64,000 bases of DNA from Elusimicrobiaceae bacterium (lineage in GTDB: Bacteria > Elusimicrobiota > Elusimicrobia > Elusimicrobiales > Elusimicrobiaceae), in the NCBI GenBank assembly GCA_017528825.1, contig JAFXOI010000031.1, positions 26,033 through 90,032 of the forward strand, written 5' to 3'. The translations under genes were made by a program, and so were the position numbers. How positions within the stretch are numbered: the stretch's first letter is position 1; every line of letters starts with the position of its first letter. Shown here in pieces: positions 25,591 through 55,119 of the stretch. The notes beneath the pieces are model-generated. The model was not told the origin of the DNA, searched no databases, and was given only the letters and a program-made list of their open reading frames with translations.

Positions 25591-25639
25591 TATCGCATAG
25601 GAAGCGGTGCTTGAGTTGTTGCGACGGAAGGTGTACAAT

Positions 25640-30450: not shown

Positions 30451-30454
30451 ACCC

Positions 30455-32977: not shown

Positions 32978-34363
32978 ATGAAAAAATCTTTATTATTTTT
33001 ATGTATCTTGTCTGTTTCTCTTACCTCAGCGGCGGCTCCGTTCCGCCAGCCCAATCCCATTCGTCAACACGGAAAAGAAGAGGGGATGATGTTGGACTTG
33101 AATAAAATTACGCTGGGTACGCTCAATGATGTGGAAGAAAAGAAACAATATCTTTCCACCGTACAACTGGAGAAACAGCGTATCCAAAACTACATGTTGC
33201 ATCAGGTGTATGAAGATGCTTATACCCTGTACCGCCGCGGGGATTATCAACGGGCACAGGAAATGGCGCAAACCATTTTGAGTATTGACCCCAATTATAC
33301 GCAGGCCTCTACGCTAGCCAAACAAGCCGGTAATATGGGGGCCTATGGTACGACTTCGGAAGCCGAAGTTATCGATGCTAAATTTCAGGAAGCCAACCGG
33401 ATGTATGATTCCGGGCGCTTGGTAGAAGCTAATGAAAAATTAGATGAGATTTTAACCCTGCAACCGCACAATTCAAAAGCATTATCTTGGAAACATCGTA
33501 TCGATCGTGATATTGCCCAAGAATATGCCCGTCGCGGTAATGTGGCCTACGACAAAAAAGATTACAAAGAAGCGTTGGATAATTGGTATAACGCTTTGCT
33601 CATTCGTAAAGATGATCCGAATTTAGTCAATAAAATTGCCCAAACGGAAAATCAATTGCGCCAACAACAAGTAAAAGATGCCATGGAAAAAGCAATGGAT
33701 TACTACAACAAAGGGCAATACTTGGAATCTTACTCTACTTTTGAACGGATTACTAAAATCCAACCCGGAGATCAACGGGTACAGAAATACATGAGCCAGT
33801 TAAAAGACGAGATTGCCACCAGTTATTACGATGCTGGAAATAAGTCTTATGGAATGCAAAAATATGACAGCGCAGTCACCTACTATACCAATGCTAAAAA
33901 GTGGGGGGCTGATGCTAATCAAATGGACCAGTTGATCAAACGCGCTCGCAATGCCAAAGAGAATGCCTTGCGCCGCAAACAAGAAGCCGCCGCTAAAGCT
34001 GCGGAAGACGCGAAAAAGAAGATAGAGGAAGAGGCTAAAGGACCGGAGGAGGAAGAACCGATTGAAACCGTGCCGGTGGAAGGTAATACCGGCGGTTTAA
34101 CACCGCTTACTCCGGGAACAGCTCCTTCTTTGGGTCCGGATAGTAATACAACCACAGACGGCATTGGCGGAGCGACTGGCCGCGTGTCGGAAGAAGCCAG
34201 AGAAGCCTCTAAACAGAAATATCTGGAAGGGTTGGATGCATTTAACCAAGACGACTACGAACGGGCACGCCAAGCCTGGATTGTGGCCAAAAGGTTGGAC
34301 CCAGGCAATACAGATGCTGATTCCGGTTTGCGTAAAGTGGAAGAATTAATCGGCATTCGCTAA
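32978..34363 (+). CDS. Exported multi-TPR protein (TadD/CpaO-like position)
   Basis: Signal peptide, many TPR units (AYTLYRRGDYQRA, ILSIDPNY), Pro/Gly/Thr linker, final TPR. Confidence 0.75.
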   Translation: MKKSLLFLCILSVSLTSAAAPFRQPNPIRQHGKEEGMMLDLNKITLGTLNDVEEKKQYLSTVQLEKQRIQNYMLHQVYEDAYTLYRRGDYQRAQEMAQTILSIDPNYTQASTLAKQAGNMGAYGTTSEAEVIDAKFQEANRMYDSGRLVEANEKLDEILTLQPHNSKALSWKHRIDRDIAQEYARRGNVAYDKKDYKEALDNWYNALLIRKDDPNLVNKIAQTENQLRQQQVKDAMEKAMDYYNKGQYLESYSTFERITKIQPGDQRVQKYMSQLKDEIATSYYDAGNKSYGMQKYDSAVTYYTNAKKWGADANQMDQLIKRARNAKENALRRKQEAAAKAAEDAKKKIEEEAKGPEEEEPIETVPVEGNTGGLTPLTPGTAPSLGPDSNTTTDGIGGATGRVSEEAREASKQKYLEGLDAFNQDDYERARQAWIVAKRLDPGNTDADSGLRKVEELIGIR

Positions 34364-35807: not shown

Positions 35808-36764
35808 ATGAAAAGACTTATTATTTTTGTAGTAGCCTGTGTGTTGGCTTCTTCCGTCTATGCAGCCGACAAAGCGGCTAAAAGCAGTAAAAATGCTAAA
35901 GCCACTTCTAAACAACCGATTGAATTTACCGTCATCGAAGCAGAAGAGTATGCTTCCGGTAAACAAGATCCCCGTGTCACCAACGGATTGGCCACCTTTT
36001 TAGAAGGGGTGCCGCAAGTGACGGCGATGTCTGTAGTAACTGCTAAACAAGACCCGGCATTGGCTAACTTGGATTATAGTTTCTTGCCGCTTTATTTAGT
36101 AAAGAAAACACCGAAATTGCAAAAGAAATTAGAGCAGCAAATTGCGGCCGGTTACGTACAACAAAATGATACGTATCTGATTTTCCCGCGCTTAACTCGC
36201 ACCGGTGTTTATACAGATAAAACAGCGAACCCGGGCGTATTGGAAATTTTTGTAATGTCTCAGTGCCCGTATGGAGCTATGGCGGAAAATATGGTTATCC
36301 AAGCCAAAAAAGAAGGCAAATTCCCGTTGGATAAAACGGTCAAATTGCGTTACATTGTTAACTACAACGAGCAGACCGGAGAATTCCAAAGCTTGCATGG
36401 CACGGCCGAATGGGAAGAAGACGTTCGCCAATTGTTGATTGCCAAATACTATCCCGCCAAACTATGGAAATATTTGGAAATTCGTAACAAAGATTATCGT
36501 TCCAGCCGTTGGGATAAAGCCATGGAAGAAGCCGGTATCAGCGTGAGCAAAATTACCAAGAAATTTGATAAAGAAGGCATAGAATTGCTCAAAGCCGAGG
36601 CGGCCTATGGCAAAGAATATAATATCAATGCATCTCCGACATTCTTGTGGGAAGGCAAAGAAATATTGGACTTTGGCAGCGTAGCACAAAAACCCGGATT
36701 TGAGTTTCTAAATCCGGCGCGTACGCAGCCCAATGCACCCGCCGCACCCACCGGTAGTTGCTAA
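35808..36764 (+). CDS. Exported thioredoxin/DsbA-fold protein with CPYG motif
   Basis: Signal peptide, LEIFVMSQCPYG, cis-Pro loop NASPTF, C-terminal ...PTGSC. Confidence 0.7.
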   Translation: MKRLIIFVVACVLASSVYAADKAAKSSKNAKATSKQPIEFTVIEAEEYASGKQDPRVTNGLATFLEGVPQVTAMSVVTAKQDPALANLDYSFLPLYLVKKTPKLQKKLEQQIAAGYVQQNDTYLIFPRLTRTGVYTDKTANPGVLEIFVMSQCPYGAMAENMVIQAKKEGKFPLDKTVKLRYIVNYNEQTGEFQSLHGTAEWEEDVRQLLIAKYYPAKLWKYLEIRNKDYRSSRWDKAMEEAGISVSKITKKFDKEGIELLKAEAAYGKEYNINASPTFLWEGKEILDFGSVAQKPGFEFLNPARTQPNAPAAPTGSC

Positions 36765-40558: not shown

Positions 40559-40744
40559 TTGTTTATGCGCCGAATAAAAGCATTGCTGCGCCTGGCGCGT
40601 AGAAGTCGCCGCGGCCAAGCTACCATCGAATATGTGCTGATGCTTAGCAGCATATTGGTAATCTTGTCGGCTTTTATTTCGGCTTTTCACAAAGATATTG
40701 TGAAATGGTTTTTTATGTTTATCGGGCAATTATTGGCCAAATGA
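40559..40744 (+). CDS. Flp-like minor pilin
   Basis: RRG|QATIEY followed by a hydrophobic helix. Confidence 0.82.
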   Translation: MFMRRIKALLRLARRSRRGQATIEYVLMLSSILVILSAFISAFHKDIVKWFFMFIGQLLAK

Positions 40745-41865
40745 AAACATTTTTACGTACCTGTCAGCACACCCTGCATAGCCGGCAAGCACAAATTTTG
40801 TTGCCGGCAGTAATGTTGGCGCCTATTTTCATTTTGGTTATTTACTTGTTATTTGAAACCTCCAAACTATCCATGACTAAGGTGCGCCAGCAATTCGCCT
40901 TGGACAATGCCGCCTATGCCCAGATGTCTACTGCCAGCACTTACTTAAATGCAACTGCGATGGTGAACGGGATTCCCTACCGCGTTATGCGAACGATGAG
41001 CCAAACGCTCAAACCAAAAAAAACTTCTGAGTTGAAAGGTAATTTTACTGTGTTTGATGTGTTTTACCGCGCAGGCGCATTTCTGTCTATTGGACCTAAC
41101 CATGCCGACCAAGCCATTTCAAACCCGATCCCGGCTGCTGCATCTACTAACTGGGATTTTCAGTATTACGGTGATAAGCGGAAAAACTGGATAAAGGAAG
41201 AACCTTCCGATGCCAACGAAGATATGGAAGAGAAAAAAGATGATGGTGGCAAATACTTAGTTTTAGCGGATAAAGAAATAGTCGACAATTATTTCTTTAC
41301 TTCTACCAACGGCGCCTTGGATAGGGTTAAAGATTATATAGTTATTTTTATTCGTACAGGTTCTATTTATGCTTCCCAGAATTATGCATACAAGGATACC
41401 ATTAAAAAGAGCCGTATGTTTCGCGAAGCAATCTTTCTAAACACGAAGGATTGTCGTAAATCAGAGTGCGGCCAGCAAGGGGCGGCTGTTCTAGACCGTT
41501 TTGAACTAAACACAGTTCCGTTTGAAATTGAAAGAGGCCGCTTTTATTTAACAGCAGACTATGTAGGGTCTACGGCCCATTCCGGTGCATATCCGCTTGA
41601 TTTGGATTTCAATAAAATTATTAAAACGAAATTATTTCAATTTGGCTATTTGGATGCCTCCAGCCGTTCCCGTTTGAAACAACTGGCCAGAGGCATCACG
41701 TTGAAACAAAAATATGTAGTGCCGGAGAACCGTTTTAATATCAATATCACTGCCCGCTACAAACCGTACGTAAAAAATACGGTATCGGTGACATGTCCAC
41801 GCAGCGGCAATAACTGCGTATGGCCCAATCCGTTGCCTAAATACAGTGTGAAGGTGGGCGTATGA
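40741..41865 (+). CDS. tadG: TadG-like pseudopilin
   Basis: RQA|QILLPAVMLAP hydrophobic start, RQQFALDNAAYA (Tad domain pattern), four Cys. Confidence 0.7.
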   Translation: MKTFLRTCQHTLHSRQAQILLPAVMLAPIFILVIYLLFETSKLSMTKVRQQFALDNAAYAQMSTASTYLNATAMVNGIPYRVMRTMSQTLKPKKTSELKGNFTVFDVFYRAGAFLSIGPNHADQAISNPIPAAASTNWDFQYYGDKRKNWIKEEPSDANEDMEEKKDDGGKYLVLADKEIVDNYFFTSTNGALDRVKDYIVIFIRTGSIYASQNYAYKDTIKKSRMFREAIFLNTKDCRKSECGQQGAAVLDRFELNTVPFEIERGRFYLTADYVGSTAHSGAYPLDLDFNKIIKTKLFQFGYLDASSRSRLKQLARGITLKQKYVVPENRFNINITARYKPYVKNTVSVTCPRSGNNCVWPNPLPKYSVKVGV

Positions 41866-42392
41866 GAAAATATAATTTTTCCCGCCACGGTCAAGCCACA
41901 ACCGAAACGGTTCTTCTGTTGCCGGTGATGGTTATTTTTATTCTATTTATTATCAAAATTTTTGGCCTCTTAGTTTTGACCCAAAAGATGGAAATTGCTG
42001 GTTTTTATGCGGCCCGTCGCTATCAGTTGCAGAGCCATACGGCGGATGTTTTAACTCGTTGGGACCGCCGTTTCTTACAAAAAGATATTAAAAAGAAAGT
42101 AGAAGAGTACCTTGGTTTTAATAACCCGGGGATGGTGCGTTTTTTGAGTTTGAAGAGCTTGAAATTGGATATCAATACCAAGGGTACTTGGACAAAGGTA
42201 ACTATGACCGTTTCCACGCGGCCGCCGCAAATTAAGTTTTTGTGTAATTACGATAAGTTGCAAATTTGCGAAAATGATATTTCCTGTTTGCACGGATATG
42301 CTTTCCTGTGCGAAACGGGGGGGCAAATCCAAATCATCAAATACGTCAGTCCTAATGAGCGGCCCTTGCCGTTTGTGCGACCGGAATCGTAG
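41862..42392 (+). CDS. tadE: TadE-like pseudopilin
   Basis: RHG|QATTETVLLLPV, AGFYAARR. Confidence 0.8.
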   Translation: MRKYNFSRHGQATTETVLLLPVMVIFILFIIKIFGLLVLTQKMEIAGFYAARRYQLQSHTADVLTRWDRRFLQKDIKKKVEEYLGFNNPGMVRFLSLKSLKLDINTKGTWTKVTMTVSTRPPQIKFLCNYDKLQICENDISCLHGYAFLCETGGQIQIIKYVSPNERPLPFVRPES

Positions 42393-42452
42393 TAAGAATT
42401 TGTAAAAGATTTCTCGGTTTATCGAGTGATTTGGCAAGTATTAAAAAAACGC

Positions 42453-42481
42453 TTGACAAACCGAAAAAATCAGTTTATACT
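42453..42481 (+). promoter_or_regulatory. Consensus sigma70 promoter of the cargo-array unit
   Basis: TTGACA 42453-58, 17 nt, TATACT 42476-81. Confidence 0.8.
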
Positions 42482-42578
42482 ATAGTAGAAATAGATGTAT
42501 CAGTAAACTCTGTGTTTGAGCGCGGGACATCCCCGCGGGTCAGCAAGAGTGAATTTTTATATTATGGCGAGGTGGAAT

Positions 42579-44216
42579 ATGTTAAAACTGTTCCAGAAAA
42601 AATCGAAGGTGAAGGAAGGTAAACAAACCCAAGCCGATGCCAACGCGCAGACTCAGCAAAAAAAGAAAGAAGCGCCGTTGGCCGCGTTTGGCAAAACATG
42701 GAAGAAATTAAATTCCATGGACCGCAAACAGGCCTATACATGGGGCGCTGTGATACTGGTAGGGGTCATCGGGCTACTGATTTTAGCTTCGGCAGCCTCT
42801 GGTGAGAAAGATGATTTTTCGGATTTTGAAACCCGCGGTTATGACTTGGCAAACATGCCCTTTTCTTCCGATGAAGCGGAGCAATACCTGTTAGCTTCTA
42901 AATATCCGGATATGGAAGAGGGTAATAAAGGGATGGGTCTCTATAGTGCAGAAGAAAAAGAGGCCCGCCAAGAGGAAGATGCAGAGCAAGCCGAACTGGA
43001 TACGTCTGCCTCGTCTTCAGCTTCCGAATATGTGCCGGGGCGCTATTATGGCGGTGGCGGTAGCGGACGCGGCACAGGTGCGCGCACGCAAGTAGGCAGT
43101 TTGGGCAGCGCCAGCATAAAAGGGGCTAGTGGGTCCGGCTTGAGCAGCAAATTCGGCCCGAGCGGAGATTTTTCTAATTTCCGCAGTCAAAATAAAGGTA
43201 GTGACAGAGCACCCGGTCGCCTCCACGGTGGTGATGCCCGCACGGCATTACGACAAACAGCCATGGCCAGCCGGGCAGCTGCTGGGCTGAAAAACGACAA
43301 AATGTTAAATGCCAAAAAAGCTTTGATGGGTGGCAATGTAGAAGGTAGTAAAGCTTTTATGGATGATAGCGGTGCTGTTAACTTAGGCGAAGCCGCCGGT
43401 TTGGATTTAGACACCAATGCTCCTACCAGCAGCGCCGACCTTAGTGGCTTAGATCAAGGATTGAATGATGCCAAAGATAAGGGACAAAAGGACGGAAGCG
43501 ATAACGATGATGAGAAAAATGAGTGGGAAGAATTCGCAATAGAATTCTTGAAAAAGGCAATAGATTTCGGTTTGCAGTTAGCAGAAGGTGCGGTACAGGA
43601 TGCCATTAAAGTGCATCAACAGCAGGTGGCTAACTATCAGGTGGATTTAGCCAATGCGCAGATGGAAGGAAAATTGGATCCTCCTCCGACAAAGCTTAGT
43701 GATGGATCGTCTCTGACAGCAGATATGCTTGGAAATGGGGATGCTAATGTGCAAGCTGGGTTGAAAGGAGCAGGTTGGAGCGTGGCCGAAGGACAAGGGT
43801 TCAGCAATACTTCTGATTCACAGACTTGGACATCAAGTGATGGGCAGACTGTGACTGTCAACAGAACCCCTAAAAAGGATAACGACGGGAACGTGATACC
43901 TGGAGCGTATGATTATTCCTATGCAGATGGGCAAAAAGCTCCCACGGTAACCAAGAAACAGGCCAATGCGTATAATAAATCTGCGCTAAAAACGTACAAT
44001 AACAGTGATCCTGTGAAGAAGTTCAAAAAGCAAAGTTTTGCGCAAACAAAATCGGACTATTACGGTAATACGTCAAGGACAAGTACTTTAGGAACTTCCT
44101 CCGGACAAAATGTAACGTATAACGGTGTGTCGTATTGGGGACGCGTTGGCAAAGATGGTAAATTCCATATAGATGGTGGTGGTACCCTGGATACATGGGA
44201 CGGTAAAGGGCAGTAA
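42579..44216 (+). CDS. Gly/Ser-rich single-TM protein of unknown function (array protein A)
   Basis: ATG 42579 after SD gaggtgg. Basic N-tail, TM (YTWGAVILVGVIGLLILA), low-complexity linker, helical region, Thr/Asp/Gly-rich C-domain. Confidence 0.75.
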   Translation: MLKLFQKKSKVKEGKQTQADANAQTQQKKKEAPLAAFGKTWKKLNSMDRKQAYTWGAVILVGVIGLLILASAASGEKDDFSDFETRGYDLANMPFSSDEAEQYLLASKYPDMEEGNKGMGLYSAEEKEARQEEDAEQAELDTSASSSASEYVPGRYYGGGGSGRGTGARTQVGSLGSASIKGASGSGLSSKFGPSGDFSNFRSQNKGSDRAPGRLHGGDARTALRQTAMASRAAAGLKNDKMLNAKKALMGGNVEGSKAFMDDSGAVNLGEAAGLDLDTNAPTSSADLSGLDQGLNDAKDKGQKDGSDNDDEKNEWEEFAIEFLKKAIDFGLQLAEGAVQDAIKVHQQQVANYQVDLANAQMEGKLDPPPTKLSDGSSLTADMLGNGDANVQAGLKGAGWSVAEGQGFSNTSDSQTWTSSDGQTVTVNRTPKKDNDGNVIPGAYDYSYADGQKAPTVTKKQANAYNKSALKTYNNSDPVKKFKKQSFAQTKSDYYGNTSRTSTLGTSSGQNVTYNGVSYWGRVGKDGKFHIDGGGTLDTWDGKGQ

Positions 44217-44244
44217 TTAATTTTATTTGTAAGGAGCGTAAATT

Positions 44245-45681
44245 ATGAAAATCATAAATTGGATTAAAAATCGCAGCGGTAAATTCGCTCTTTCTACAGC
44301 GCAAGCTATAGGGACGGCCGCAGTGGTAGGCGTGGCAGGTATCGCCGCGTGGCAAATGTTGTCTTCTTCGGGTCCTAATCAGGATACGGCATTTTCCTCT
44401 CAAGACCCGGACGTAGTCTATGTGGCCGGCGGGGCCGGTGGCTCCTACAGCGGCGTTGGATATGGCGAAGGCGGAGAATTGCAAAGCCATATTAATGTAT
44501 CCAAATCCTCCAGCCAACGGCTCATGGAAAGAGATTTTGAACAGGAAAAATTGCGTGGACAAAACCCATCTTCCAGCCAAATGGAGCGGGATGAACAAGC
44601 CATTTCTGCCCATAAAATGAACGGGGCTAGCGAAGGCTTAGGCGTGGGTGTCGGCGCACAAGAAATGGGTAGCGGCACAATGGAAGGCGGAAACAGCCAA
44701 GTGCAAGATCAAATTGCCGCTATTAGTGCCCTGGCTAACCAAAAGAAAGAAGAAGCTGAAGCGGCAGCTGCAGCGGCCGGTGCGGAAGGCGGAGATGTAG
44801 TAGCGGCAGCCGCTAAAGCAGCCGGTTTGAATAAAAGCGGTGGCAAATATGACATGGCTTCCGGCATAGCCCGTAGCGGTAACAGTTATAGCACGAACGC
44901 TTTTGGCGGTTCCACCAGAATAGCCGAAAAAGGCGGGCGCATTAGCCCTAGCGCTGAAACCGATCGTTTAGCTATGGGAAGATCCGGCCAAATGCAAGGT
45001 CCCAATAATGCCAATTTTGGCGGTTATCATGGTAAAGTAGGCAATGACTTGGGCTCTATGGCCAAATATGCCTCTGATGCAAGAAGCAAAAAAATGGCCG
45101 TGAACCAAATGGCTTCTGATCTATATATGTCCGGTGCACAACAAAGCGGCGGTATTAAAGTAGCCAACGATGGCAGTCTAGGATTAGGCGGTGGTGAATC
45201 ATTGGATCTTTTGGACGATGCCGTGCGTGCGCTGGGTATTACAGGCGAAGGTATAGGTGGGGAAACTTATGGACAGGCAAAGCAACGATTGCTTGACGGT
45301 ATATATGACTTACGTACAAAACTAGCGGGTTTAGCTTCTATTCCGTTGATTGGGCCGCTTTTTGCACTCATTCCCTATTTAAATTATCTGAAACAGGTAA
45401 AAGAGTTTAAAGAGAGTTGGGGGGCTAGTGTGATGGAAACTGAAAATACGCAAGGCTCTTTGGCAGATCATCTCAAAAACTGTGCTGACCAAATGTATGG
45501 GTTATCGTGGATGAGTACTGCAATGAGTGTGTTTGGTGTAGTGGGGTTTGTAGCTGGTTTGGAAGGGTCTGTAGTCGGCGTAATAGGTAGTTACAATGCA
45601 TACGCAGCTCAATATTGGCCCGAAGCTGCCGAAGAAGAGGGAGAGGAGAATCCGGATCCGACCAAAGAGAAGAATAAATAA
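44245..45681 (+). CDS. Gly/Ala/Ser-rich protein with prepilin-like leader and hydrophobic C-terminus (array protein B)
   Basis: MKIINWIKNRSG + hydrophobic segment. C-terminal LAGLASIPLIGPLFALIPYL and MSTAMSVFGVVGFVAGL. SD aaggag. Confidence 0.75.
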   Translation: MKIINWIKNRSGKFALSTAQAIGTAAVVGVAGIAAWQMLSSSGPNQDTAFSSQDPDVVYVAGGAGGSYSGVGYGEGGELQSHINVSKSSSQRLMERDFEQEKLRGQNPSSSQMERDEQAISAHKMNGASEGLGVGVGAQEMGSGTMEGGNSQVQDQIAAISALANQKKEEAEAAAAAAGAEGGDVVAAAAKAAGLNKSGGKYDMASGIARSGNSYSTNAFGGSTRIAEKGGRISPSAETDRLAMGRSGQMQGPNNANFGGYHGKVGNDLGSMAKYASDARSKKMAVNQMASDLYMSGAQQSGGIKVANDGSLGLGGGESLDLLDDAVRALGITGEGIGGETYGQAKQRLLDGIYDLRTKLAGLASIPLIGPLFALIPYLNYLKQVKEFKESWGASVMETENTQGSLADHLKNCADQMYGLSWMSTAMSVFGVVGFVAGLEGSVVGVIGSYNAYAAQYWPEAAEEEGEENPDPTKEKNK

Positions 45682-45691
45682 GGAGGAATTT

Positions 45692-47299
45692 ATGAATATA
45701 CTAAAACTACTAAAAAATTGTACAGGTGCTATACGGCCGGCGGGGATTGCCGCGTTGTGTATGACGGGTACAATGGCGTTTATTGGTATTTCCAATTATA
45801 TGTCATCTTCTCCGGCTGCTCAAGAAAAAAAGGTACGTGCTATGGCAGATCTGATGCGTGAGAATCCGTCGGCTGTTCCGAGTATGAATTTTGCCTTTGA
45901 CAAGAATCAATTCGCTTCTGCGGAAGAAAAAGCCAGAATGGAAGGCCAAATGGCTGATAAAGTGTTTGGCGCTGGGGATCAAGCTGCTGAAGCAATAGAA
46001 GGATTGAATTTAGCGTCTAACGGTGCAATCGAAGGTATTGGCAATATTCAAGGTTCTGCCTTGGGAGCTGGAGAGGACAGCTTTGGCTTAAATACGGATA
46101 AGGGTGCCGAAAGTACCGGCGGTAGTGTCCGTGGGGCTGCCCAAAGAGGCAGTACGGACGGCATGGATGAAGCCGTTGCGGGCCAAGCGAAAAAAGAAGT
46201 CAAACAATTGCAGAAAGCATCTGTCAACACTAAAGGCGGCAGTAATTTAGGTAGCGGGACAGGTTCTCTCAGCGGTGCAAATAGCTCCGCAGCAGGACGT
46301 TCCGTAGGCCAAGAAAGAGCGAGCCGCATTAATCCCAGTGCTCGGGGTGCAGGGTCTATTACCGGGGCGATGGGTGACGGTACTACGGGACTGATTGCCA
46401 GCGGTGCCCAATATCGCGGCATGCACAGTACCTCCTATAAAGGCAATAACCGGTTCTCTTCTTCTCACAGCGGACAACAAATGGGAAAAGAACTAAACAG
46501 TTTGAAACAAATTGCACAAGATTCTGCTAAGATTGCCGATTCAATAGGCAAATCTGCTAACGAGGGAAGCCGTGCATTTTGGGGCAATAAATCTTTATCG
46601 GCAGTGATGGATGTAGATGGTTATCAGACAGGAGTAGGTGGTGGTGAGCTGCCGAGTGCTGAATTCCATAAGCAGCCATCTATTGATAATCTCGATACGG
46701 AAATGGATAAGCAGAAGAAGTTGGAAGCCGAACGGGAGGAGGCTCGTAGAAACCTAAAAACTCAGCTTATCTCTCTGCTTTTTGCCGCCCTGGGAGCCGC
46801 GATAGGTATTGCTGCTCTTAAAAAACTGGGTCCGTGGGGAATAGCAGGTGCTGCGATTCTCTTAGCTGGAATATGTGCATGGTCTATTGCTTTTATCGTA
46901 CAGGCCGGCAGATATATGAGCAAGTTCGGTTCTGACGGAATTAGTATTGCAAGTATCGTAGTGGGTGTCTTGTGTATAGCGGCAGTTGTTATCGCTTTTG
47001 CGGTCGGTGATTTCGGATCGCAAGCGAGCGCAGCCGAGGGAGAATCGTCAGCAGCTCTTGGAGAATCTGCTGCAGAAGCCGGCGCGGAAGCCGGTGCAGA
47101 AGCCGGTGCCGCGGCAGCTGGAGAAGCCGGTGCCACTGCGGCTAGTGGAGCAAGTGCTGGAACAAGCGCAATGGCGGCATTGGGAGGAGGAACTTCTGTA
47201 CTTATGGGTGGAAAAGAAGCTGTTGAGGGTATTATCAACTCAGCGGATCCCAATTTAGCTACTGGTGACGGTTCGGGTTCAGGTGGCGGTAAAAAATAA
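45692..47299 (+). CDS. Gly/Ala/Ser-rich protein with prepilin-like leader, coiled coil and three hydrophobic helices (array protein C)
   Basis: ATG 45692 after aggagg. MNILKLLKNCTG + hydrophobic segment, KQKKLEAEREEARR, then three long apolar helices. Confidence 0.75.
   Translation: MNILKLLKNCTGAIRPAGIAALCMTGTMAFIGISNYMSSSPAAQEKKVRAMADLMRENPSAVPSMNFAFDKNQFASAEEKARMEGQMADKVFGAGDQAAEAIEGLNLASNGAIEGIGNIQGSALGAGEDSFGLNTDKGAESTGGSVRGAAQRGSTDGMDEAVAGQAKKEVKQLQKASVNTKGGSNLGSGTGSLSGANSSAAGRSVGQERASRINPSARGAGSITGAMGDGTTGLIASGAQYRGMHSTSYKGNNRFSSSHSGQQMGKELNSLKQIAQDSAKIADSIGKSANEGSRAFWGNKSLSAVMDVDGYQTGVGGGELPSAEFHKQPSIDNLDTEMDKQKKLEAEREEARRNLKTQLISLLFAALGAAIGIAALKKLGPWGIAGAAILLAGICAWSIAFIVQAGRYMSKFGSDGISIASIVVGVLCIAAVVIAFAVGDFGSQASAAEGESSAALGESAAEAGAEAGAEAGAAAAGEAGATAASGASAGTSAMAALGGGTSVLMGGKEAVEGIINSADPNLATGDGSGSGGGKK
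47072..47131 (+). repeat. 12-bp in-frame tandem repeat (AEAG)
   Basis: gcagaagccggc / gcggaagccggt / gcagaagccggt, plus ggagaagccggt at 47120. Confidence 0.75.
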
Positions 47300-47311
47300 T
47301 AAGGTCCACTT

Positions 47312-47623
47312 ATGGCAAAAATAGATATGGTATTGAAAAAGGTGTTTAATGTAACGGTGTTGGTGTGTCTTTTCATAACAGGATTGTTGTTATCAGTGTA
47401 TTTTGCATACCAACAACGGCAGGCGGAGCGGGAGCTGATTTATCTCAAGGCGCGGGAACTGGTTAAGCAAGAACAACAGGACCGCTTACGAGATTATCAA
47501 AAACGCTTACAACAGCGCCGTCTGACCCAAGAGTATAACAAAGGCCGCGTGGTAAATATGAACCAACCAACCCAACCGGCCCAATCGGCTGCCCCGGCAG
47601 ATACGGCAGCAGCCCAGAAATAG
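47312..47623 (+). CDS. Small TM + coiled-coil protein
   Basis: 103 aa, one TM, then a Gln/Arg-rich helix. Confidence 0.7.
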   Translation: MAKIDMVLKKVFNVTVLVCLFITGLLLSVYFAYQQRQAERELIYLKARELVKQEQQDRLRDYQKRLQQRRLTQEYNKGRVVNMNQPTQPAQSAAPADTAAAQK

Positions 47624-47632
47624 GAGTTTAGC

Positions 47633-49096
47633 ATGAAACAGGAAAAGACAAGTTCTTCGTCGGTTGTACCGTCGCTTAACCCTGCTCAGGGACAGCACCG
47701 TCCGGCCGCGATGAACCCATACAAAAAGTGGGGAATAATCGGGGGACTTGTTTTTTTCCTGTTTTTGATTATATTTGTAATACCGGCAGGTAGTTGGCCG
47801 GGATTGCGTAAGGTAGTTAGCACGTTGGAAGAGGCGCCGCAAGCCCAGTCTTGGAGTGTAGGTCGTATCCTATGGACGTGGGCCCGCGCAGGGTTTCCGT
47901 TTCAATCGCAAGAAGCCCAGCAGTTATCGCTCTTTGACAGAAAGCAGTCAGTTGCGCAGACAACCGGAACTAAATCGGGACTGATTGATTTGGCCGCGGT
48001 GAATGTTTCTCGGCGCGCGCGCGGGTTGCGCGCGGATGGGATAGCAGGCGCGTACGAAGCAGAAGAAGGCGACGATAGAGCCGCTCTCTCCCGCCCTGTC
48101 GGGGACTGGAGTGACGAAGCAAAAGCGTCGGCCGAAAAATCCGCCAAAGCGGTGGATGTCTACTTGGGTACGGATGCAGATTTGCTGGCACGGGCGGATT
48201 CTTCCGCCGGTCAGGGTTCGGCCGATACGGCACAGATGCGTGCTCGTTCGGTTGTTGCCGGTACGGTAAGTTCCGATATGCTGGCCAGTGTGGCTGATAG
48301 CATGTCCGCTTCCACGGACGCGGCGTTGAGGCGAGCTTTGGCCGCTGCCGCCACAGCCTCTGCCAATACTAGTATCCGTAGCGGTACGGATTTGAGCCAA
48401 AAAGCCCAACAGGATTTAGCGCAAGTATTCGTGCTCACTAACATCGCCGAAAAAGCGCCGGAAGGGTTTAAGAACCAATTGGTTACCGCCGGATACATGG
48501 CGGGCACTGTATCTGCAGAAGCCTATGAAGCGGTCAGCGCGCCCAGTGTGTCTTTGCGCGGGGCAGAAAAGGTGGCTCCTTCAGCACAGACCGGAAAGAC
48601 CGAGGAACAATGCCAGCAACAGGCCAAGCAGACCAATGAGCAATTGGCCCCGGTGCTAGAGCGTTCCCGTGAGCTCATCCGCCACATTCGTCAGGGGGTA
48701 CCGCAAGGGTGCGGGGCGGAACTGAGTAACTGGAAAAGCAGTTTGATTCAAGTGCGTGAGCAATGCCAAACGGTCAAAAAACTATTTTTATCTATGAGAG
48801 ATGCCTGCGGCATGAACGTACCTAAGGAGGGCAGTTGCGAAACGGTTTATTTGGATGCGTATGCGGGCGAGTTGTCTGAGAAATGTGAAGCTCTGTCAAC
48901 GGCAAAAGCGCAAGTGCCGGTAGATAAGAGCCAAGTATCAGAGCTAACCGCGCAAATTAATACACTGGCGCAGACGTTTGATCAGATGCAGCTGGATAAT
49001 TCGTTTAACTTGCGGGTAGACGGTGTGTTAGGGACGAATGACTTTTTCCCACAGACCGATAACACCCAATGGTTGACGCAAGAAAAAGCCCAATAG
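47633..49096 (+). CDS. Ala-rich single-TM protein with six-Cys helical C-domain (array protein E)
   Basis: TM WGIIGGLVFFLFLIIFVIP. Cys in EEQC, PQGC, REQC, RDAC, EGSC, SEKC. SD aggag. Confidence 0.72.
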   Translation: MKQEKTSSSSVVPSLNPAQGQHRPAAMNPYKKWGIIGGLVFFLFLIIFVIPAGSWPGLRKVVSTLEEAPQAQSWSVGRILWTWARAGFPFQSQEAQQLSLFDRKQSVAQTTGTKSGLIDLAAVNVSRRARGLRADGIAGAYEAEEGDDRAALSRPVGDWSDEAKASAEKSAKAVDVYLGTDADLLARADSSAGQGSADTAQMRARSVVAGTVSSDMLASVADSMSASTDAALRRALAAAATASANTSIRSGTDLSQKAQQDLAQVFVLTNIAEKAPEGFKNQLVTAGYMAGTVSAEAYEAVSAPSVSLRGAEKVAPSAQTGKTEEQCQQQAKQTNEQLAPVLERSRELIRHIRQGVPQGCGAELSNWKSSLIQVREQCQTVKKLFLSMRDACGMNVPKEGSCETVYLDAYAGELSEKCEALSTAKAQVPVDKSQVSELTAQINTLAQTFDQMQLDNSFNLRVDGVLGTNDFFPQTDNTQWLTQEKAQ

Positions 49097-49126
49097 GCCT
49101 ATTTTGAAAAAGGGCCCAAAAAGTGG

Positions 49127-49155
49127 TTGACATTTTGAAATAATAATTCTTTAAT
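49127..49155 (+). promoter_or_regulatory. Sigma70-like promoter of the 1335-aa gene
   Basis: TTGACA 49127-32, 17 nt, TTTAAT 49150-55. Confidence 0.6.
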
Positions 49156-49263
49156 GGTAGTAGTAGGATTTGTAGTGTAGTAATCGGTCTTAGCGGGCCC
49201 GAGCGGTCGCTAAGGCCTAGCAGTACACCCCCAGTTGTGGGGGAAAACTAAAAGGAGAAAGTT

Positions 49264-52200
49264 ATGGCTGAAAATAAGAAGGATTCTTTCACCTTTAGCG
49301 ATAAGATTAAAAACAGCAAGCCTGCAGTTAATCCGTTCGCTAAGAAAGGTGCTTCTAAAATCGGCAATAATGGCAAGCCCAAACAGACCTTGTTTGAACG
49401 GTCTCGTCGTGATGCGCCCTTTATGGTAGCGGCGGCGGCGGCTTTGCTGATGTTGCCCTTTTTGTACAAATACAGCGGTAACGTCAATGATGACGTCATT
49501 GTACCGCCAGGGTCAGAAGATTCTATTTTTGATCCGGAACGCTTTGGGTTCTCTCCCAGCAACGAAGATCCCACCGGCCAGATTGCACAATTGGCGGGTC
49601 GTGATCCGCTGAGCCTGATTAAAGGCTGGGGCAACCCGGAAGAAGAGCAAGAAGCGGCAGAACCGGAATACGAATCCAGAGATGCGTTTGACCGGGATTA
49701 TACTCCGGCTCCGCGTCCGGATACGCCCAACTATCGGCAGACTGCTCCGGTAGCCACCCGTGCGGCTTTCCAAAGAACACCTACCAAGATTAAAGACTTG
49801 AGCGGTGCTTCTTTGAACTTGCGCGGTGGCGGCGGTGTGGGCAGCCGTTTTGGTGGTGCTCAATTAAAAGCTGCTGCCAGACAAAGCTCTGCCAGCGCTC
49901 CGAGAAGAGGAGCTCAAGCTCGCTCTTTAACTCCGTTGCGTTCAGCGGCTAATCCGTCTCGTTCTTACTTTGGTCAAGGCGGTGCGGCACAAGCTCGTGC
50001 ATCTCGTGATGCGTTGAGTAAAGCTAACGCAGCAGAAGCCTTACGCGACGCTATGTTTGCCCCGGTGAAAAACGAACGTGTGGGCGGACTGGCCGATGGT
50101 TTCTTTGCTTCGGGCGGTGGTCCGGGCAAAATTGACCGCAACATGAACTTCAAAGGTATGGAGCCGTGGTGGTGGGACATGATGAAACAACAAGAAATGG
50201 AGAGATGGAAATGGAACTATTTCTTGTGGAGAAAAGGCTTAGTAGAGCCGCTCATCGCCGCGTTAGCTCAAGTATTGGCTAAAATCGGTACGAACCTTAC
50301 TTGCTGTATCGTAATGGGTAACTCCGATTGTGATGCAGATACTTTTGTCGGTTCCAATGGAACGGGTAGTAAAGCTCCTGAATGTTGCGGAGTCAACGAA
50401 GAAAGATTCCGTGCTCAATTCCCCGCAATTTCTGCACTGTATCCAGACGATTTTAAAGCCGCTTGTGATGCTGCACGTAAAGGTGATAAAGGGAAACAAG
50501 ATTGTCCTAGCGGTTGGAAAGCCGGTCATAATTATGGCACCAAGATGAACGGTTTCCAAACCCGTTGGAAATGTTTGGGTGGTGTTGTGCATGGCTCTGG
50601 AGCTACGGAACTGCGTGACCGCTATAACTGCGAAGCTATCAATACTACGCAGAACTTTGAATTACAAGCCACCGGTCAAGCAGCTAAATGGAAAAACCAT
50701 TACCACGTGGTGGTAGTAGATAATTATGTGCCGTTCCCGGTAGGAGATGATAAATCTCACTATCTGTGCACCAGCATGGAAATGCCGGGTGCCAACTCAC
50801 AGAATCGTATCGCTCTGCAAAACGTGAATGGCCATTCCGAAGATCACAATGCCGGAAGACATACCAGTAGCGGACAAAAATATACGTATAAGGATAAAGA
50901 CGGCAAAACCGTTGATGCTCATACTACTGACATCGTGCGCGACAACATCAACGATGGTTGTGTAATCTATGTGGCCAAAGGCGATAATTTCAGATGGCCG
51001 ACGTTCAAATCTGAAACGATTGGACTGTTAAATGAAATGATTCCCGAAGACGCGGGTATTTCCGGTGAGGAAGCCTTTGCCCAATTGCGTTTACGTTTCA
51101 TTGAAGGCTATGCCATGAAACAAACCTTGGCAAGAAAATGGGAAAAAGCTAAAGGAAAACGTGTTCGCTCTAAGAGTGGCGGTACGCATCGCACGAATGT
51201 ATACAAAAAAGTCAGCGATGGTATGATTGACCAGTCCATCCTGCCTGTATCGTATGCGGACTTTGAAAGTTTCTACGTCTTGCACCGCAGCAGCGCTAAA
51301 CCGAGCGAGTCTCAAGCTCCTTATAGTGATCAGAAAAAACGCAAGTTTGCTGATACATATCAAGGAGTGGACAACTCTACTCGTACGTCTTTAGCAGATG
51401 ACGGTAAAGCAACTGCTATTCGCTCTGAGCAATGTGAGTTCAATAGCTTCCGTATTACGGCTAGAGAAATTGAGTATGTGGAGAAAGAGGGAACCGGAGA
51501 AAGCCAGTTGAGCATTGCTGCCAACCTGACCTTTGATCCGTTGCGCTATCCTAAACGGGAAGATTTGGTGGTGACGTTGACCATCAAAGGCGCTGACGGC
51601 AAGACCGTCATTGATAACCACACGCTCACGGATGCGGAGAAACTCACTTGGCAAGATGGTAATAGTTTTATTAAGTTAGAAAATGAGAAACCGGTGCGTG
51701 ATTATTTCAAAAATATTCCGGCCGGAGAGAAGAGATCTATCACGGCTTACTGGACGGCTACCGATCCTAAGACAAAGAAAGAGTCTAAAGATCAGACGTC
51801 GTATGGTTCTGAAAAGCCGATGATCCCGATAAAAACGAAGTCGCCTTGCGAGGAAGGACAGACTCTTTGGGAAGGCGAAGTGGACAAGGATGGTTGTCCC
51901 TTGTACAAAAAATGCGTTGATAACAAGTGGAGTACGGAGAAAGCAAAAGATCCGAACTGCCCTAATAACATCAAGAAATGTACTCCGGGAGACACTAAAA
52001 CCATTCCGAGTGCTGTTGAAGGGTGTGATGCGACCATCACCTGTGACGAACATGGTGAATGGGGCGGTAGCGTGACCGTGGACCCCGAATGTCTATCCAA
52101 CAAGATCAAAAACAAAATCAAAGGTGGGGCTAAGCAGTCATGTACGGAAGATGTGACCGTTACCAGCGGAGAATGTGTGTATGTGATTCCCTGCGAAAAT

Positions 52201-53271
52201 GGTCAATATAATCCCGAAGCGGCCAACTTGACAAATCCGGAATGTTTGAATAGCTTTAGCTCAGACATTGGTTTGTACTCTTTAGCAGGGCACATCATGG
52301 AAGTGCCTACAGTGTTGGAGAATCATGCTAAGAGTGCAGATGCAGGCTTTACTTTTGCCCCTGCACAAGGACCTATGTACTATACTCAGCAGCCTAAGCA
52401 TGATCAGGATGCCACCGCACTGAGCGGTAGAGCGGTTGACAACAGAAGCTCTGATAGCGCCAGAGAGTTTGTCAATGAGGTGTTATCAGAAGTGAATGAT
52501 CGGTTGAAATCGCAGAAAGCGGGATACGCCTTCGTGACATTGAAAGCAGGTGAGGCTCCTAGAATTCCGCAGTTTGTGGATGCTATGCTCCTTGCGAAGA
52601 ACACACTAGGTCGAACGAGTGTTCCCAAAGCTGCTGTGTGTACGATGGCTCGCGGGGTTGGGTTGTCTTCTTACGATCCGGTCAAAGTCAAACAGGATCT
52701 AAGCAATGAATTCGGCTCTTTCGCTATCTACACCGGTCTGTCTTCTGCCTATGTGCCGCGCCAAGATGTTGAAGAAATAGTGGACGGCGTAAAACAGACC
52801 AGAACTAACCAGCGGTTTGACACAGCACCTTATCAGGCCAATAGTTATATGAAGAGAGGGCTTCAAGGTATAACTAAGAGTGGTGTCCAAAGCCCTGTTC
52901 CTGATGATAAGGGTATAGAAGGCGCGATGGTGAATGGAAGATTCCCCTTAGCGGCATTACTGGAGGACGTGCAGTTTAGTAATGACTTAAAGAATCCCTT
53001 GAAAGGCCATTGGTGGGATGATATGTCTAAACCAGAAGTTTCTCAGAAAGTATATGATGAATATGATAACAAGATCGGAAGCATATTATTCCATGATACT
53101 GGCCGATGTAATTTATACGGAAGCCAAGAAATGAGTATTCAAGATGCCTTGAATTATATCGGCAAAGTGCTTGAGTTAGGCTTGGATTATAAACCGCTCT
53201 CCAAGAAGGACTCGAAGCCTGGAAAGACAAAAGTGCATAGTACTACTGGGCACGGAGGCAAGAACGGTTAA
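49264..53271 (+). CDS. 1335-aa single-TM protein with Gly-rich linker, Trp-rich helix and Cys-rich repeats (array protein F)
   Basis: TM PFMVAAAAALLMLPFLY, PWWWDMMK...WKWNYFLW, three C-x-C-x-C-x-PxC repeats at 51847-52245. SD aaggag. Confidence 0.78.
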   Translation: MAENKKDSFTFSDKIKNSKPAVNPFAKKGASKIGNNGKPKQTLFERSRRDAPFMVAAAAALLMLPFLYKYSGNVNDDVIVPPGSEDSIFDPERFGFSPSNEDPTGQIAQLAGRDPLSLIKGWGNPEEEQEAAEPEYESRDAFDRDYTPAPRPDTPNYRQTAPVATRAAFQRTPTKIKDLSGASLNLRGGGGVGSRFGGAQLKAAARQSSASAPRRGAQARSLTPLRSAANPSRSYFGQGGAAQARASRDALSKANAAEALRDAMFAPVKNERVGGLADGFFASGGGPGKIDRNMNFKGMEPWWWDMMKQQEMERWKWNYFLWRKGLVEPLIAALAQVLAKIGTNLTCCIVMGNSDCDADTFVGSNGTGSKAPECCGVNEERFRAQFPAISALYPDDFKAACDAARKGDKGKQDCPSGWKAGHNYGTKMNGFQTRWKCLGGVVHGSGATELRDRYNCEAINTTQNFELQATGQAAKWKNHYHVVVVDNYVPFPVGDDKSHYLCTSMEMPGANSQNRIALQNVNGHSEDHNAGRHTSSGQKYTYKDKDGKTVDAHTTDIVRDNINDGCVIYVAKGDNFRWPTFKSETIGLLNEMIPEDAGISGEEAFAQLRLRFIEGYAMKQTLARKWEKAKGKRVRSKSGGTHRTNVYKKVSDGMIDQSILPVSYADFESFYVLHRSSAKPSESQAPYSDQKKRKFADTYQGVDNSTRTSLADDGKATAIRSEQCEFNSFRITAREIEYVEKEGTGESQLSIAANLTFDPLRYPKREDLVVTLTIKGADGKTVIDNHTLTDAEKLTWQDGNSFIKLENEKPVRDYFKNIPAGEKRSITAYWTATDPKTKKESKDQTSYGSEKPMIPIKTKSPCEEGQTLWEGEVDKDGCPLYKKCVDNKWSTEKAKDPNCPNNIKKCTPGDTKTIPSAVEGCDATITCDEHGEWGGSVTVDPECLSNKIKNKIKGGAKQSCTEDVTVTSGECVYVIPCENGQYNPEAANLTNPECLNSFSSDIGLYSLAGHIMEVPTVLENHAKSADAGFTFAPAQGPMYYTQQPKHDQDATALSGRAVDNRSSDSAREFVNEVLSEVNDRLKSQKAGYAFVTLKAGEAPRIPQFVDAMLLAKNTLGRTSVPKAAVCTMARGVGLSSYDPVKVKQDLSNEFGSFAIYTGLSSAYVPRQDVEEIVDGVKQTRTNQRFDTAPYQANSYMKRGLQGITKSGVQSPVPDDKGIEGAMVNGRFPLAALLEDVQFSNDLKNPLKGHWWDDMSKPEVSQKVYDEYDNKIGSILFHDTGRCNLYGSQEMSIQDALNYIGKVLELGLDYKPLSKKDSKPGKTKVHSTTGHGGKNG

Positions 53272-53311: not shown

Positions 53312-53349
53312 CCGCCCCGGTAGAAATACCGGGGCGGCTTTTTGTGTTT
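53312..53349 (+). terminator. Rho-independent terminator ending the array
   Basis: CCGCCCCGGTA-GAAA-TACCGGGGCGG then CTTTTTGTGTTTT. Confidence 0.88.
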
Positions 53350-53436
53350 TGGCTCCTCTGAGTGTTCTGTCGGCAATCTCCTGCTTATCCTTTTTTCCCG
53401 TTCGTTCCTTCCGTCAATTATTGCTACAATATACAT

Positions 53437-55119
53437 ATGTCTATTAGGAAAAATACCCTATTTGTCTTGTTTAGCGCTCTGCTGTGGGCCGCCGCCGTGC
53501 CCGCGTGGGCATTTTTCCCGTTTGACTTCGGTAAAAAAGAAATCAAAACCGACTATTCCCAAACCGTTTGGGACCGTATTATGTTAGATCAGTCCGTTTC
53601 CGATATGCGGCGCGGGATGGGGGAAATGTCTTTGGCCAGTTATCAGGCGGCGGCTAATTCATTTGCCAAAGCAATTATTAAAAACCCAAACGATGCGCTG
53701 CCGCATTTCTTGTACGGTGCTTCTTTGTATTGGAGCGGAAAGGTGGATGATGCTATGAGCGAGTACCGCGAGGGCTTGCGCTTAGAGCCGCGCGATGCCA
53801 TGGGGTATCAGCTGATGGGTATTGCCTGGGGGTGGAAAGGGGATATTGCTCAAGCTCAGGAAAATTTCTTAAAAGCCACCCAATTAAACCCGCTTAAAGC
53901 AGACAGCCACATGAATTTGGGTTCTACCTATGCCGCTCAGCATGAGTGGGAAAAGGCATTGGATGAGTATCGCCGCGCCGTGGAACTGATGCCGCGTGAG
54001 CCTTTGTATCATTATCAGTTGGGCACTTTGTATGACTTTATGGGCAGAGACAGCCAGGCCGAAGAATCTTATCACAAGGCCTTGAAGTATTTTTCCCGTT
54101 ATGAAGATGCACAGCTGGCACTGGCGGCTCTGTACGAAAAACAAGACCACACCGAAGAAGCGTTGAAGTATTACAAAAAAGCAGTGAAAACCAAACCCGG
54201 AGATTTTGTGGCACGCCTGCGATACGGTTATTTGCTCACGCGTCTGGGGCGACGCGAAGAAGCGCGGGCCGTATTAGAGGAGGCATTTTCTATTGCTCCA
54301 TTTAAGTCAGACGGGCTGGCTCTTAATGCCGTGTACCGCGCTAGCGGACAGAACGCCGACGATTTCCAAAAACAAATTGATCAGTTTAAGCAGAATTTGC
54401 TCAAAGTGCCGGCCGGAAAAGATATTAATGTGCAAGTAAATTTGGATTATCAGCCGTTAGCTACCCCCGCCGCTTCCGGCGATAAAAACAGTAAATTTGC
54501 AGAGGCCTATCAAAGTTTGCGTGCCTCCTCCGCTGTGGCAGACGGTGCAACCCCCATGTCTTTCCAGCGCAGTTTTGTATTAAACGCCACCGATGAAAAC
54601 ACCCGCGCCTCGCAAGTGGAAAATTTTACGCAAGAGCTTACCCGCGCGGCCACCATGGGGGGAGATAAATATCAAGTAAGTATGACCTTGCAAGGGCGCA
54701 CGATGGATTATACGTCCCCGTCTGCTTTGACCCAAAACCGCACGGTGGCCCCCAAAGCGGTGTATGACCCGCGCATTGTGGGAAATGATATGGGACTATG
54801 GGTCATGGGCAAAACATGGATACGGTATGTGGAAGATATTGCGGCTGACTTGCAGGAAGAAAAAATGAACGGCGCGGAATATTCCATTTTACAGGGACTG
54901 GCGGCCCTGCTTGCCGGACAAGCCGGAGCGGCACGGGATATTTTTGCCGAGGCGGCCTCGCAAAATTCGAAGGATGTTTTGCCCTTATTAGGCCTAGGTA
55001 CGGCGGCGGTTATTGCGGCAGACGACGAGCAAGCCGCGGCGTATTACCGGCAAGTGCTCTCTTTGCAACCTCATCATAAAGTGGCCACGCGCAATCTGAA
55101 AATTTTGGAGAATCAATGA
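53437..55119 (+). CDS. Exported tetratricopeptide repeat protein
   Basis: Signal peptide MSIRKN...PAWA and many TPRs (NPLKADSHMNLG, PREPLYHYQLG). ATG 53437. Confidence 0.85.
   Translation: MSIRKNTLFVLFSALLWAAAVPAWAFFPFDFGKKEIKTDYSQTVWDRIMLDQSVSDMRRGMGEMSLASYQAAANSFAKAIIKNPNDALPHFLYGASLYWSGKVDDAMSEYREGLRLEPRDAMGYQLMGIAWGWKGDIAQAQENFLKATQLNPLKADSHMNLGSTYAAQHEWEKALDEYRRAVELMPREPLYHYQLGTLYDFMGRDSQAEESYHKALKYFSRYEDAQLALAALYEKQDHTEEALKYYKKAVKTKPGDFVARLRYGYLLTRLGRREEARAVLEEAFSIAPFKSDGLALNAVYRASGQNADDFQKQIDQFKQNLLKVPAGKDINVQVNLDYQPLATPAASGDKNSKFAEAYQSLRASSAVADGATPMSFQRSFVLNATDENTRASQVENFTQELTRAATMGGDKYQVSMTLQGRTMDYTSPSALTQNRTVAPKAVYDPRIVGNDMGLWVMGKTWIRYVEDIAADLQEEKMNGAEYSILQGLAALLAGQAGAARDIFAEAASQNSKDVLPLLGLGTAAVIAADDEQAAAYYRQVLSLQPHHKVATRNLKILENQ

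Follow-up and report, generated by a model that had tools for sequence, protein, structure and literature searches.

TolA, TonB and FtsN share an architecture in which a cytoplasmic tail is followed by one transmembrane (TM) helix, a long low-complexity periplasmic spacer and a C-terminal domain, and the functional signal of FtsN is a short conserved peptide within its disordered spacer. We analysed a tandem array of genes, named A to F, at positions 42579-53271 of a stretch of 64,000 nucleotides from an Elusimicrobiaceae bacterium (assembly GCA_017528825.1, contig JAFXOI010000031.1, positions 26,033 to 90,032 of the forward strand), which is referred to below, at its full length, as the window. 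The array products appear to follow the same plan and several of them carry a common motif in the linker, for which the FtsN peptide would be the closest analogy in mode of action. However, no sequence homology to TolA, TonB or FtsN and no TolA_III, TonB_C or SPOR domain was found in the array proteins, and the operon contains no Tol or Exb genes.

Three other systems were compared with the locus. The accessory proteins and pseudopilins of Tad/Flp systems (TadE/TadF/TadG, TadD, RcpB/RcpC) are, as the array often is, encoded beside tad genes, and they are envelope proteins with N-terminal hydrophobic segments; TadD is the tetratricopeptide repeat (TPR) protein of classical tad loci, and a TPR protein is likewise encoded near the array. 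The array proteins differ from them by the absence of a TadE/Tad N-domain and of a prepilin-peptidase site, by having their own transcription unit and by a core that occurs without tad neighbours, and no similarity of sequence or fold was found. AopB and YopB resemble B and C in that a hydrophobic helical hairpin comes after a helical region and a TPR gene lies nearby; for the array, however, no Pfam translocator family was found, no injectisome was seen in the window and the TPR protein is apparently exported. Attenuators and riboswitch 5' untranslated regions combine a strong promoter, a hairpin and U-run before the ribosome-binding site and a tie to a single gene family, as does the leader that precedes A, but no alternative antiterminator fold, ligand or binding protein was identified for this leader.

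The analysis defined a conserved six-gene operon with products outside known protein families, separated a statistically supported motif from low-complexity noise and showed that the link between the operon and Tad genes is positional and not obligatory. An earlier note on this DNA had counted five genes in the array. The 42579-53271 region (about 10.7 kb) contained six genes on the same strand, arranged as one operon, D (47312-47623, 103 amino acids) having been overlooked, and the start of C was moved from the first ATG of its open reading frame (ORF) to 45692, as set by the ribosome-binding site AAGGAGG (Table 1). From A to E, successive genes are separated by 10-29 bp. Gly, Ala and Ser together account for 33-44% of A, B and C, while E and F are less biased. 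Hydropathy showed a basic N-terminal tail followed by one TM helix in A, D, E and F, and in B and C a less pronounced N-terminal anchor together with two to four hydrophobic helices near the C-terminus; by these features all six appear to be proteins of the inner membrane that lie mostly in the periplasm. E has six conserved cysteines and F several invariant ones, which fits an oxidising, extracytoplasmic location. Downstream of its linker, F carries a PWWWDMMK block, and beta-sandwich and alpha/beta domains make up the large region with cysteines that comes after this block. Its cytoplasmic tail (residues 1-50, 49264-49413) reads FTFSDKIKNSKP..., i.e. KKDSFTFSDKIKNSKP...GKPKKTLFERTRRDAPF, and is nearly invariant among homologues only 30-47% identical overall, which points to a conserved partner that binds it in the cytoplasm. 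Weak evidence of transcription comes from bovine and sheep gut metatranscriptomes, in which a few scattered contigs cover A, B, C, E and F in part.

The array has transcription signals of its own. Between 40400 and 56000 (15.6 kb), the sole site matching the sigma-70 consensus at 11 of 12 positions, which is also the best promoter-like site, lies between A and the TadE-like gene that precedes it. TTGACA-N17-TATACT was found about 90-130 nt 5' of A in 56 of 62 loci, and the promoter is kept in Elusimicrobium minutum (12/12) and in every locus without adjoining tad genes. The strongest terminator-like site of the same 15.6 kb stands directly 3' of F, and 65 of 66 loci had, within 150 nt of the end of F, a hairpin that reaches -10 kcal/mol or less and runs into a T-rich tail. 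With a conserved promoter at one end and a conserved intrinsic terminator at the other, A-F is a predicted autonomous operon.

Between the promoter and A lies a conserved, structured leader RNA of about 100 nt whose core consists of ACUCUGUGUUUGAGCG, a variable stem-loop and CGGGUCAGCAAGAGU (CGGGUCARCAAGAGU), followed by a U-run; its minimum free energy in the window is -25.7 kcal/mol. The results of RNAalifold on 43 leaders showed 16 pairs, 10 of them with compensatory changes. Pairing was found in 95.9% of cells, compared with 35-51% when the partners were slid by 1-3 columns, and the covariation score was 0.389, compared with 0.19 in shuffles, none of the 500 reaching 0.389. A covariance model of the leader (R1) found one copy per locus, always before an A-family gene (52 sources), two copies in the loci with a tandem duplication of A (L080, L081, L085), each A then having its own leader, and no copies elsewhere in 1.18 Mb. 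No match to the 4227 families of Rfam 15 was found in the 42350-42650 region at E <= 1. The leader is a candidate attenuator or protein-binding leader and a candidate new cis-regulatory RNA; alternatively, it could be a stabilising hairpin or a short independent RNA.

A gapless motif of 24 residues had been proposed for A (43086), C (46193) and F (49783), with a looser version in B (44851), and all four peptide strings were found at these positions. That such a similarity is a by-product of Gly/Ala/Ser low complexity would agree with the comparisons of whole window proteins, since pairwise BLASTP gave no matches and Smith-Waterman scores were within the range of shuffles preserving local composition. 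The motif, however, is conserved within each family while its flanks vary. The triple A170/C168/F174 (residues counted from starts 42579, 45692 and 49264) proved to be the global optimum of about 3.9e8 gapless 24-mer triples, with a sum-of-pairs score of 131 compared with 83.2 +/- 6.8 (maximum 102) in 60 local 20-residue shuffles, which places it about 7 standard deviations above the local-shuffle null.

Family profiles, made of 41 orthologues per family drawn from 79 genome loci, led to the same alignment. Comparison of the A and C profiles gave a probability of 77% and an E-value of 2e-5 (A171-335 with C169-371), and that of the A and F profiles gave 66% and 5.7e-5 (A167-193 with F171-197); both alignments, and likewise the weak C-F alignment, reproduced the register of the earlier note. 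The A-C and A-F scores (50.7 and 45.9) exceeded those of 60 of 60 local column shuffles (means about 19; maxima 40 and 28.6, respectively) and were also above the reversed-alignment controls. When a hidden Markov model (HMM) of the motif was made from F only, 47 of 60 A orthologues outscored the best of about 7000 decoy ORFs. The motif thus remained significant against composition-preserving and profile controls, and the shuffle, profile and HMM results confirm the observation and lead us to reject low complexity as its source.

The looser version in B was upheld by the B-C profile alignment, which set the B string DMASGIARS-GNSYST beneath the C motif. Two further strings noted in A and C, L(R/K)QxAxxS and GS(K/R)AF, correspond to conserved blocks in both families, namely ALxQTAxxSRAAAG and GSxAF in the A family and LxxIAKRSAxxAxN and SANEGxRAF in the B/C family (LxxIAxxSA and SANEGxRAF in the C of the window). 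The family consensus of the motif is pTqVG-L-SASm--AsGSGvsgTfG for A, LqrASmArASGs for C and aTKIn-L--Agl--RGGgglgg-fG for F. Overall, the motif common to A, B/C and the N-terminal part of F is T-x-[VI]-x-x-L-x-x-[AS]-S-[ML]..G-[SG]-G..F/G, behind which A and B/C also carry the blocks L-x-Q-x-A-x-x-S and N-x-G-S-x-A-F. Across 27 homologues of A, T170 and further motif positions vary little or not at all, distant A-like proteins keep the motif, Emin_0644 of E. minutum included, and the two C-like proteins of the divergent lineage L088 have a clearer form of it, RP(V/S)TQVNK(L/M)xSSNGSGSSF.

In every motif-bearing family the motif forms an island of conservation within an otherwise variable linker. 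A was modelled with AlphaFold2. Across residues 135-291, where the motif and the two blocks lie, the predicted local distance difference test (pLDDT) is mostly below 50 and the linker shows only two short helices, over block 2; the C-domain, which begins near residue 340, largely reaches pLDDT 80-94. The linker of A is conserved yet predicted to be disordered, and the C-domain of A varies between lineages. The distance from the anchor to the motif, about 100-140 residues, is tightly kept within families, with a median of 103 residues for A (interquartile range 99-108), 113 for F (109-119) and 138 for C (134-144). We infer from the conserved island, the disorder and the kept spacing that the motif is a short linear motif on a flexible spacer. 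The proposal that it acts as a secretion or assembly signal thus stood in part: conservation within a disordered linker fits a recognition or assembly signal, while the dependence on Tad that had been attached to it was not shown.

Comparison of the family profiles with hhalign showed that B and C match over residues 1-437 and 1-448 (100% probability, E-value 2e-41), and the window C matches B orthologues in 18 loci; by this measure B and C are full-length paralogues. A probably shares a region of about 130 residues with B/C and is probably paralogous to them, whereas the kinship of F appears limited to the motif, perhaps with a short flank, and no match of D or E to the other array proteins was found by profile comparison. 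The claim of a paralogous array therefore stood for B and C and probably for A, stood for F in the motif only, and found no support for D and E; that each protein has a unique C-domain was not borne out either, B and C sharing a C-terminal multi-helix membrane domain. In a divergent lineage (L085 8438-11005, L080 10001-12538), the second array gene encodes a second A-family paralogue of 331-334 amino acids and not a B-type protein.

Table 1. Positions, in the window, of the array genes, the motif copies, the transcription signals and the adjacent genes.
Feature	Position	Strand	Description
TadG-like gene	40705-41865	+	Pfam Tad (PF13400), weak, below cut-off
TadE-like gene	41862-42392	+	Pfam TadE (PF07811), weak, below cut-off
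Sigma-70 promoter (predicted)	42453..42481	+	TTGACA-17-TATACT; 11/12 consensus match
Structured 5' leader RNA (predicted)	42482..42578	+	Imperfect hairpin ~42507-42550, U-run 42554-42558
A	42579..44216	+	545 aa; basic N-tail, predicted TM helix 56-74, linker with motif, folded C-domain
Motif copy in A	43086..43157	+	TQVGSLGSASIKGASGSGLSSKFG; aa 170-193
B	44245..45681	+	478 aa; N-terminal anchor, Gly/Ala/Ser-rich region, C-terminal hydrophobic helices
Degenerate motif in B	44851-44907	+	From profile alignment with C
C	45692..47299	+	535 aa; N-terminal anchor, Gly/Ala/Ser-rich region, 3-4 C-terminal TM helices, Ala/Gly/Glu-rich tail
Motif copy in C	46193..46264	+	KEVKQLQKASVNTKGGSNLGSGTG; aa 168-191
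D	47312..47623	+	103 aa; single-pass, TM helix 11-29 and charged helix
E	47633..49096	+	487 aa; single-pass, TM helix 34-52, six conserved cysteines, C-terminal NDFFP
F	49264..53271	+	1335 aa; single-pass, conserved cytoplasmic tail, TM helix 50-68, linker with motif
Motif copy in F	49783..49854	+	TKIKDLSGASLNLRGGGGVGSRFG; aa 174-197
Intrinsic terminator (predicted)	53312..53347	+	Hairpin 53312-53337; 11-bp stem with 9 G-C pairs, then CTTTTTGTGT
Exported TPR protein	53362..55119	+	Likely start near 53437; TPR families matched

The order A-B-C-(D)-E-F is kept in about 60 loci of Elusimicrobiaceae. The 79 related loci come from metagenome-assembled genomes of Elusimicrobiales from animal guts, with few evidently mis-binned exceptions, and the DNA runs containing the sequence are gut metagenomes. 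The window itself derives from a gut-dwelling Elusimicrobiaceae bacterium, and outside gut Elusimicrobia the operon was not found. At least 592 homologues of F, all hypothetical proteins of Elusimicrobiaceae, and 277 homologues of A, none of them named, were found; the A and F homologues with a named source belong to Elusimicrobiaceae, Candidatus Avelusimicrobium or Elusimicrobia. The A-family profile retrieved 125 clusters at E <= 0.001 from 1.84 billion representative proteins, most of them with their best stretch in the conserved N-terminal two thirds of the profile, and these clusters include Emin_0644 of E. minutum Pei191 and Dip518_000039 of Parelusimicrobium proximum. With C as the query, only 4 homologues were retrieved, the word index of that search being swamped by low complexity. 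D was found by phmmer in 28 loci, and a small TM protein after C is also encoded in E. minutum, L083, L088 and L090. The downstream TPR gene was present in 51 loci, plus L080, L085 and L090, and accompanies the array in most lineages.

Several loci have a reduced array. That of E. minutum (L087, CP001055) consists of A-C-D only, flanked by a gene for the CCA-adding enzyme and a small membrane-protein gene on one side and by a small ORF and then rpsB/tsf on the other, and neither a tad gene nor E or F is found within 10 kb. In L083, tad, E and F are likewise missing and cdsA and dxr come after A-C-D, and L088 has A, two C-like, two D-like and one E-like genes, without F and without TadG/TadE-like genes. 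In L090 the array follows peptide-transport and peptidase genes, and in L020, L032, L064 and L070 it follows unrelated genes. The reduced loci show a conserved core of A, a B/C-type gene and D; judged from gene content, A-C-D is the ancient core, which E, F and the downstream TPR gene joined in most lineages. Just 5' of Emin_0644 (L087 9243-9827), E. minutum encodes a multi-pass membrane protein of 194 amino acids with a metalloprotease-like HEAGH (HExxH) motif, of which no counterpart was seen in the window.

The claim that the array belongs to no recognised family was borne out, as none of A-F had a Pfam or NCBIfam match above threshold, and none was found above cut-off in 27 A, 21 B/C and 13 E family members. 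Profile searches of the PDB gave no or marginal matches, F having no PDB sequence match at all. The model of F 290-1335 (pLDDT 69) consists of beta-sandwich and alpha/beta modules, for which Foldseek against the PDB returned weak Ig-like and beta-sandwich matches with a template-modelling score of about 0.07 and one weak partial match, 7p4l_B (E-value 4.8e-4, score about 0.1), while the best match of the A C-domain had an E-value of 0.54 and was PAS-like noise. The proteins are known in databases only as hypothetical, and the array is distant in sequence and fold from every known family. In the literature searched, neither the operon nor the motif nor the leader RNA was found to be described.

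The reading that we prefer, to which we give about even chances, is that A-F encodes an autonomous, lineage-specific envelope complex of the inner membrane whose subunits carry a common docking motif. The strong promoter would drive the operon and the leader hairpin and U-run would control it by attenuation or protein binding. The A-F products would assemble into one heteromeric envelope complex, in which the shared motif would be a short linear docking peptide that a flexible spacer of fixed length presents to one common partner. This partner could be periplasmic or outer-membrane-associated, with D, a domain of E or F, and the TPR protein that accompanies the array as candidates, and the divergent C-domains would give each subunit its own function. 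A bolder form of the idea, in which A-F is a new periplasm-spanning apparatus, the motif a periplasmic 'zip-code' peptide addressed to a common receptor and the leader a new class of cis-acting RNA, attenuator- or riboswitch-like, that would govern expression and duplicate with A-family genes, is in our opinion speculative and rather unlikely.

Several points weigh against the docking complex. The profile probabilities of 77% and 66% are moderate, and broader, noisier alignments dropped them to 6% for A-C and 34% for A-F. The TM assignments come from hydropathy alone. Formation of a complex is suggested by the conservation of the genes in one operon. Alternatively, the motif could be the target of processing or modification. 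Finally, the array directly follows TadG/TadE-like genes in 48 of 55 informative contexts, so that the array may not be independent of Tad.

This last point bears on the view, taken in the earlier note, that A-F are accessory subunits or substrates of the adjacent Tad/Flp machine and that the motif is the signal by which this machine secretes or assembles them. Upstream there is indeed a bona fide Tad locus with two Flp genes (G/XXXXEY), TadG/TadE-like genes stand directly 5' of A in 46 of the 50 close loci with enough upstream sequence and are absent in 4, and the entire layout from tad to A-F persists in the distant lineage L080/L085. Since the named homologues all come from Elusimicrobiaceae or their relatives, however, this adjacency may be inherited synteny. 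The array has its own promoter, leader and terminator, and it is unlinked to tad in E. minutum, L088, L090, L020, L032, L064 and L070, which shows that motif-bearing homologues occur apart from tad genes in part of the loci. No G....E[YF] (Flp) or N_methyl pattern was found in the first 80 residues of A-F, and A-F gave no PF07811 or PF13400 match, whereas the Flp genes, TadE and the TadG/TadE-like neighbours do show such features; a lipoprotein signal was likewise not found in A-F. Tad systems are also not known to export cargo other than pilins. Adjacency in the majority of loci stands, and Tad subunits or substrates are possible though unlikely. Adjacency to tad genes is frequent but dispensable, and any cooperation with Tad would be accessory rather than defining.

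Two further explanations take the architecture as their starting point. If A-C-D were a divisome or cell-wall module of the FtsN/FtsL type, the short peptide in the disordered linker would activate a membrane enzyme complex; D weakly matches the FtsL family (TIGR02209, 19.3 bits, E-value 7.7e-4), A, F and D resemble FtsN/FtsL/TolA-type proteins in architecture, and the core stands away from pilus genes in E. minutum. The FtsL score is, however, far under the cut-off of 42.45 bits, no dcw cluster surrounds the operon in any locus seen and no SPOR, LysM or other peptidoglycan-binding domain was found in it, which makes a divisome module improbable. That B/C, and A with them, are membrane-inserting translocator-like proteins (cf. 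YopB/AopB) with a TPR chaperone, the motif being the chaperone-binding peptide, is more improbable still. The B/C profile did match AopB (3wxx_B, E-value 0.007) over blocks 2/3 and the hydrophobic hairpin, and a TPR protein with weak LcrH/SycD-type similarity accompanies the array. The AopB match was rejected, as 14.3 of its 18.6 bits are compositional bias, the 21 B/C members gave no SseC/IpaB-type Pfam match, no injectisome genes were seen in the window and the TPR similarity is generic; moreover, the signal-peptide-like N-terminus of the TPR protein points to a periplasmic location, unlike that of the cytoplasmic type III chaperones. The docking complex is the reading that we retain.

Although Elusimicrobiaceae are widespread in the gut, hardly any of their envelope biology has been characterised by experiment. 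For such work the motif and the leader RNA offer two precise, mutable handles, and cultured species with homologues are available in E. minutum (Emin_0644 and two downstream genes) and P. proximum (Dip518_000039). If the proposal is true, the use of one common peptide to address the subunits of an envelope complex would be a new principle of assembly, and if the array instead serves the Tad pilus, its products would be new lineage-specific Tad components.

The literature on Tad systems and pili in Elusimicrobia yielded nothing beyond the general statement that Tad systems occur in the phylum (PMC6668835), and Elusimicrobium is not mentioned in the supplements of that article. The Tad locus upstream of the array in the window is a genuine one, with two Flp genes, TadE, RcpC/CpaB, a short secretin, a TadZ-TadA fusion, TadB and TadC, and it is followed by genes for a TPR protein (32978-34363), a HAMP-domain protein, sensor kinases and regulators and then by the TadG/TadE-like genes, which are of the pseudopilin type and form a separate transcription unit just 5' of A. 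The two tandem small ORFs 5' of TadE (25607-25834 and 25858-26079) have the Flp prepilin motif (KKGQTAVEY and EGQNTIEY) and likely encode Flp pilins. The secretin (27416-28150) has just 244 amino acids and is essentially the secretin domain alone, the 764-residue protein encoded at 28156-30450 fuses a ParA/MinD-like (TadZ-type) N-domain to a T2SSE ATPase, and TadB (30377-32080) has an N-terminal extension of about 300 residues. Between the Tad genes and the sensor kinases, 35808-36764 encodes an exported protein of 318 amino acids without a Pfam match, which by eye is an unconfirmed DsbA/thioredoxin-like candidate and as such would fit the cysteines of E and F. On the 5' side of the Tad locus, 19632-24608 encodes a Cys-rich protein of 1658 amino acids with FlgD Ig-like domains and a weak, sub-threshold match to the CHU_C type IX sorting domain, and 24628-25590, directly 5' of the Flp genes, encodes a beta-barrel-like protein of 320 amino acids with a weak match to UPF0164.

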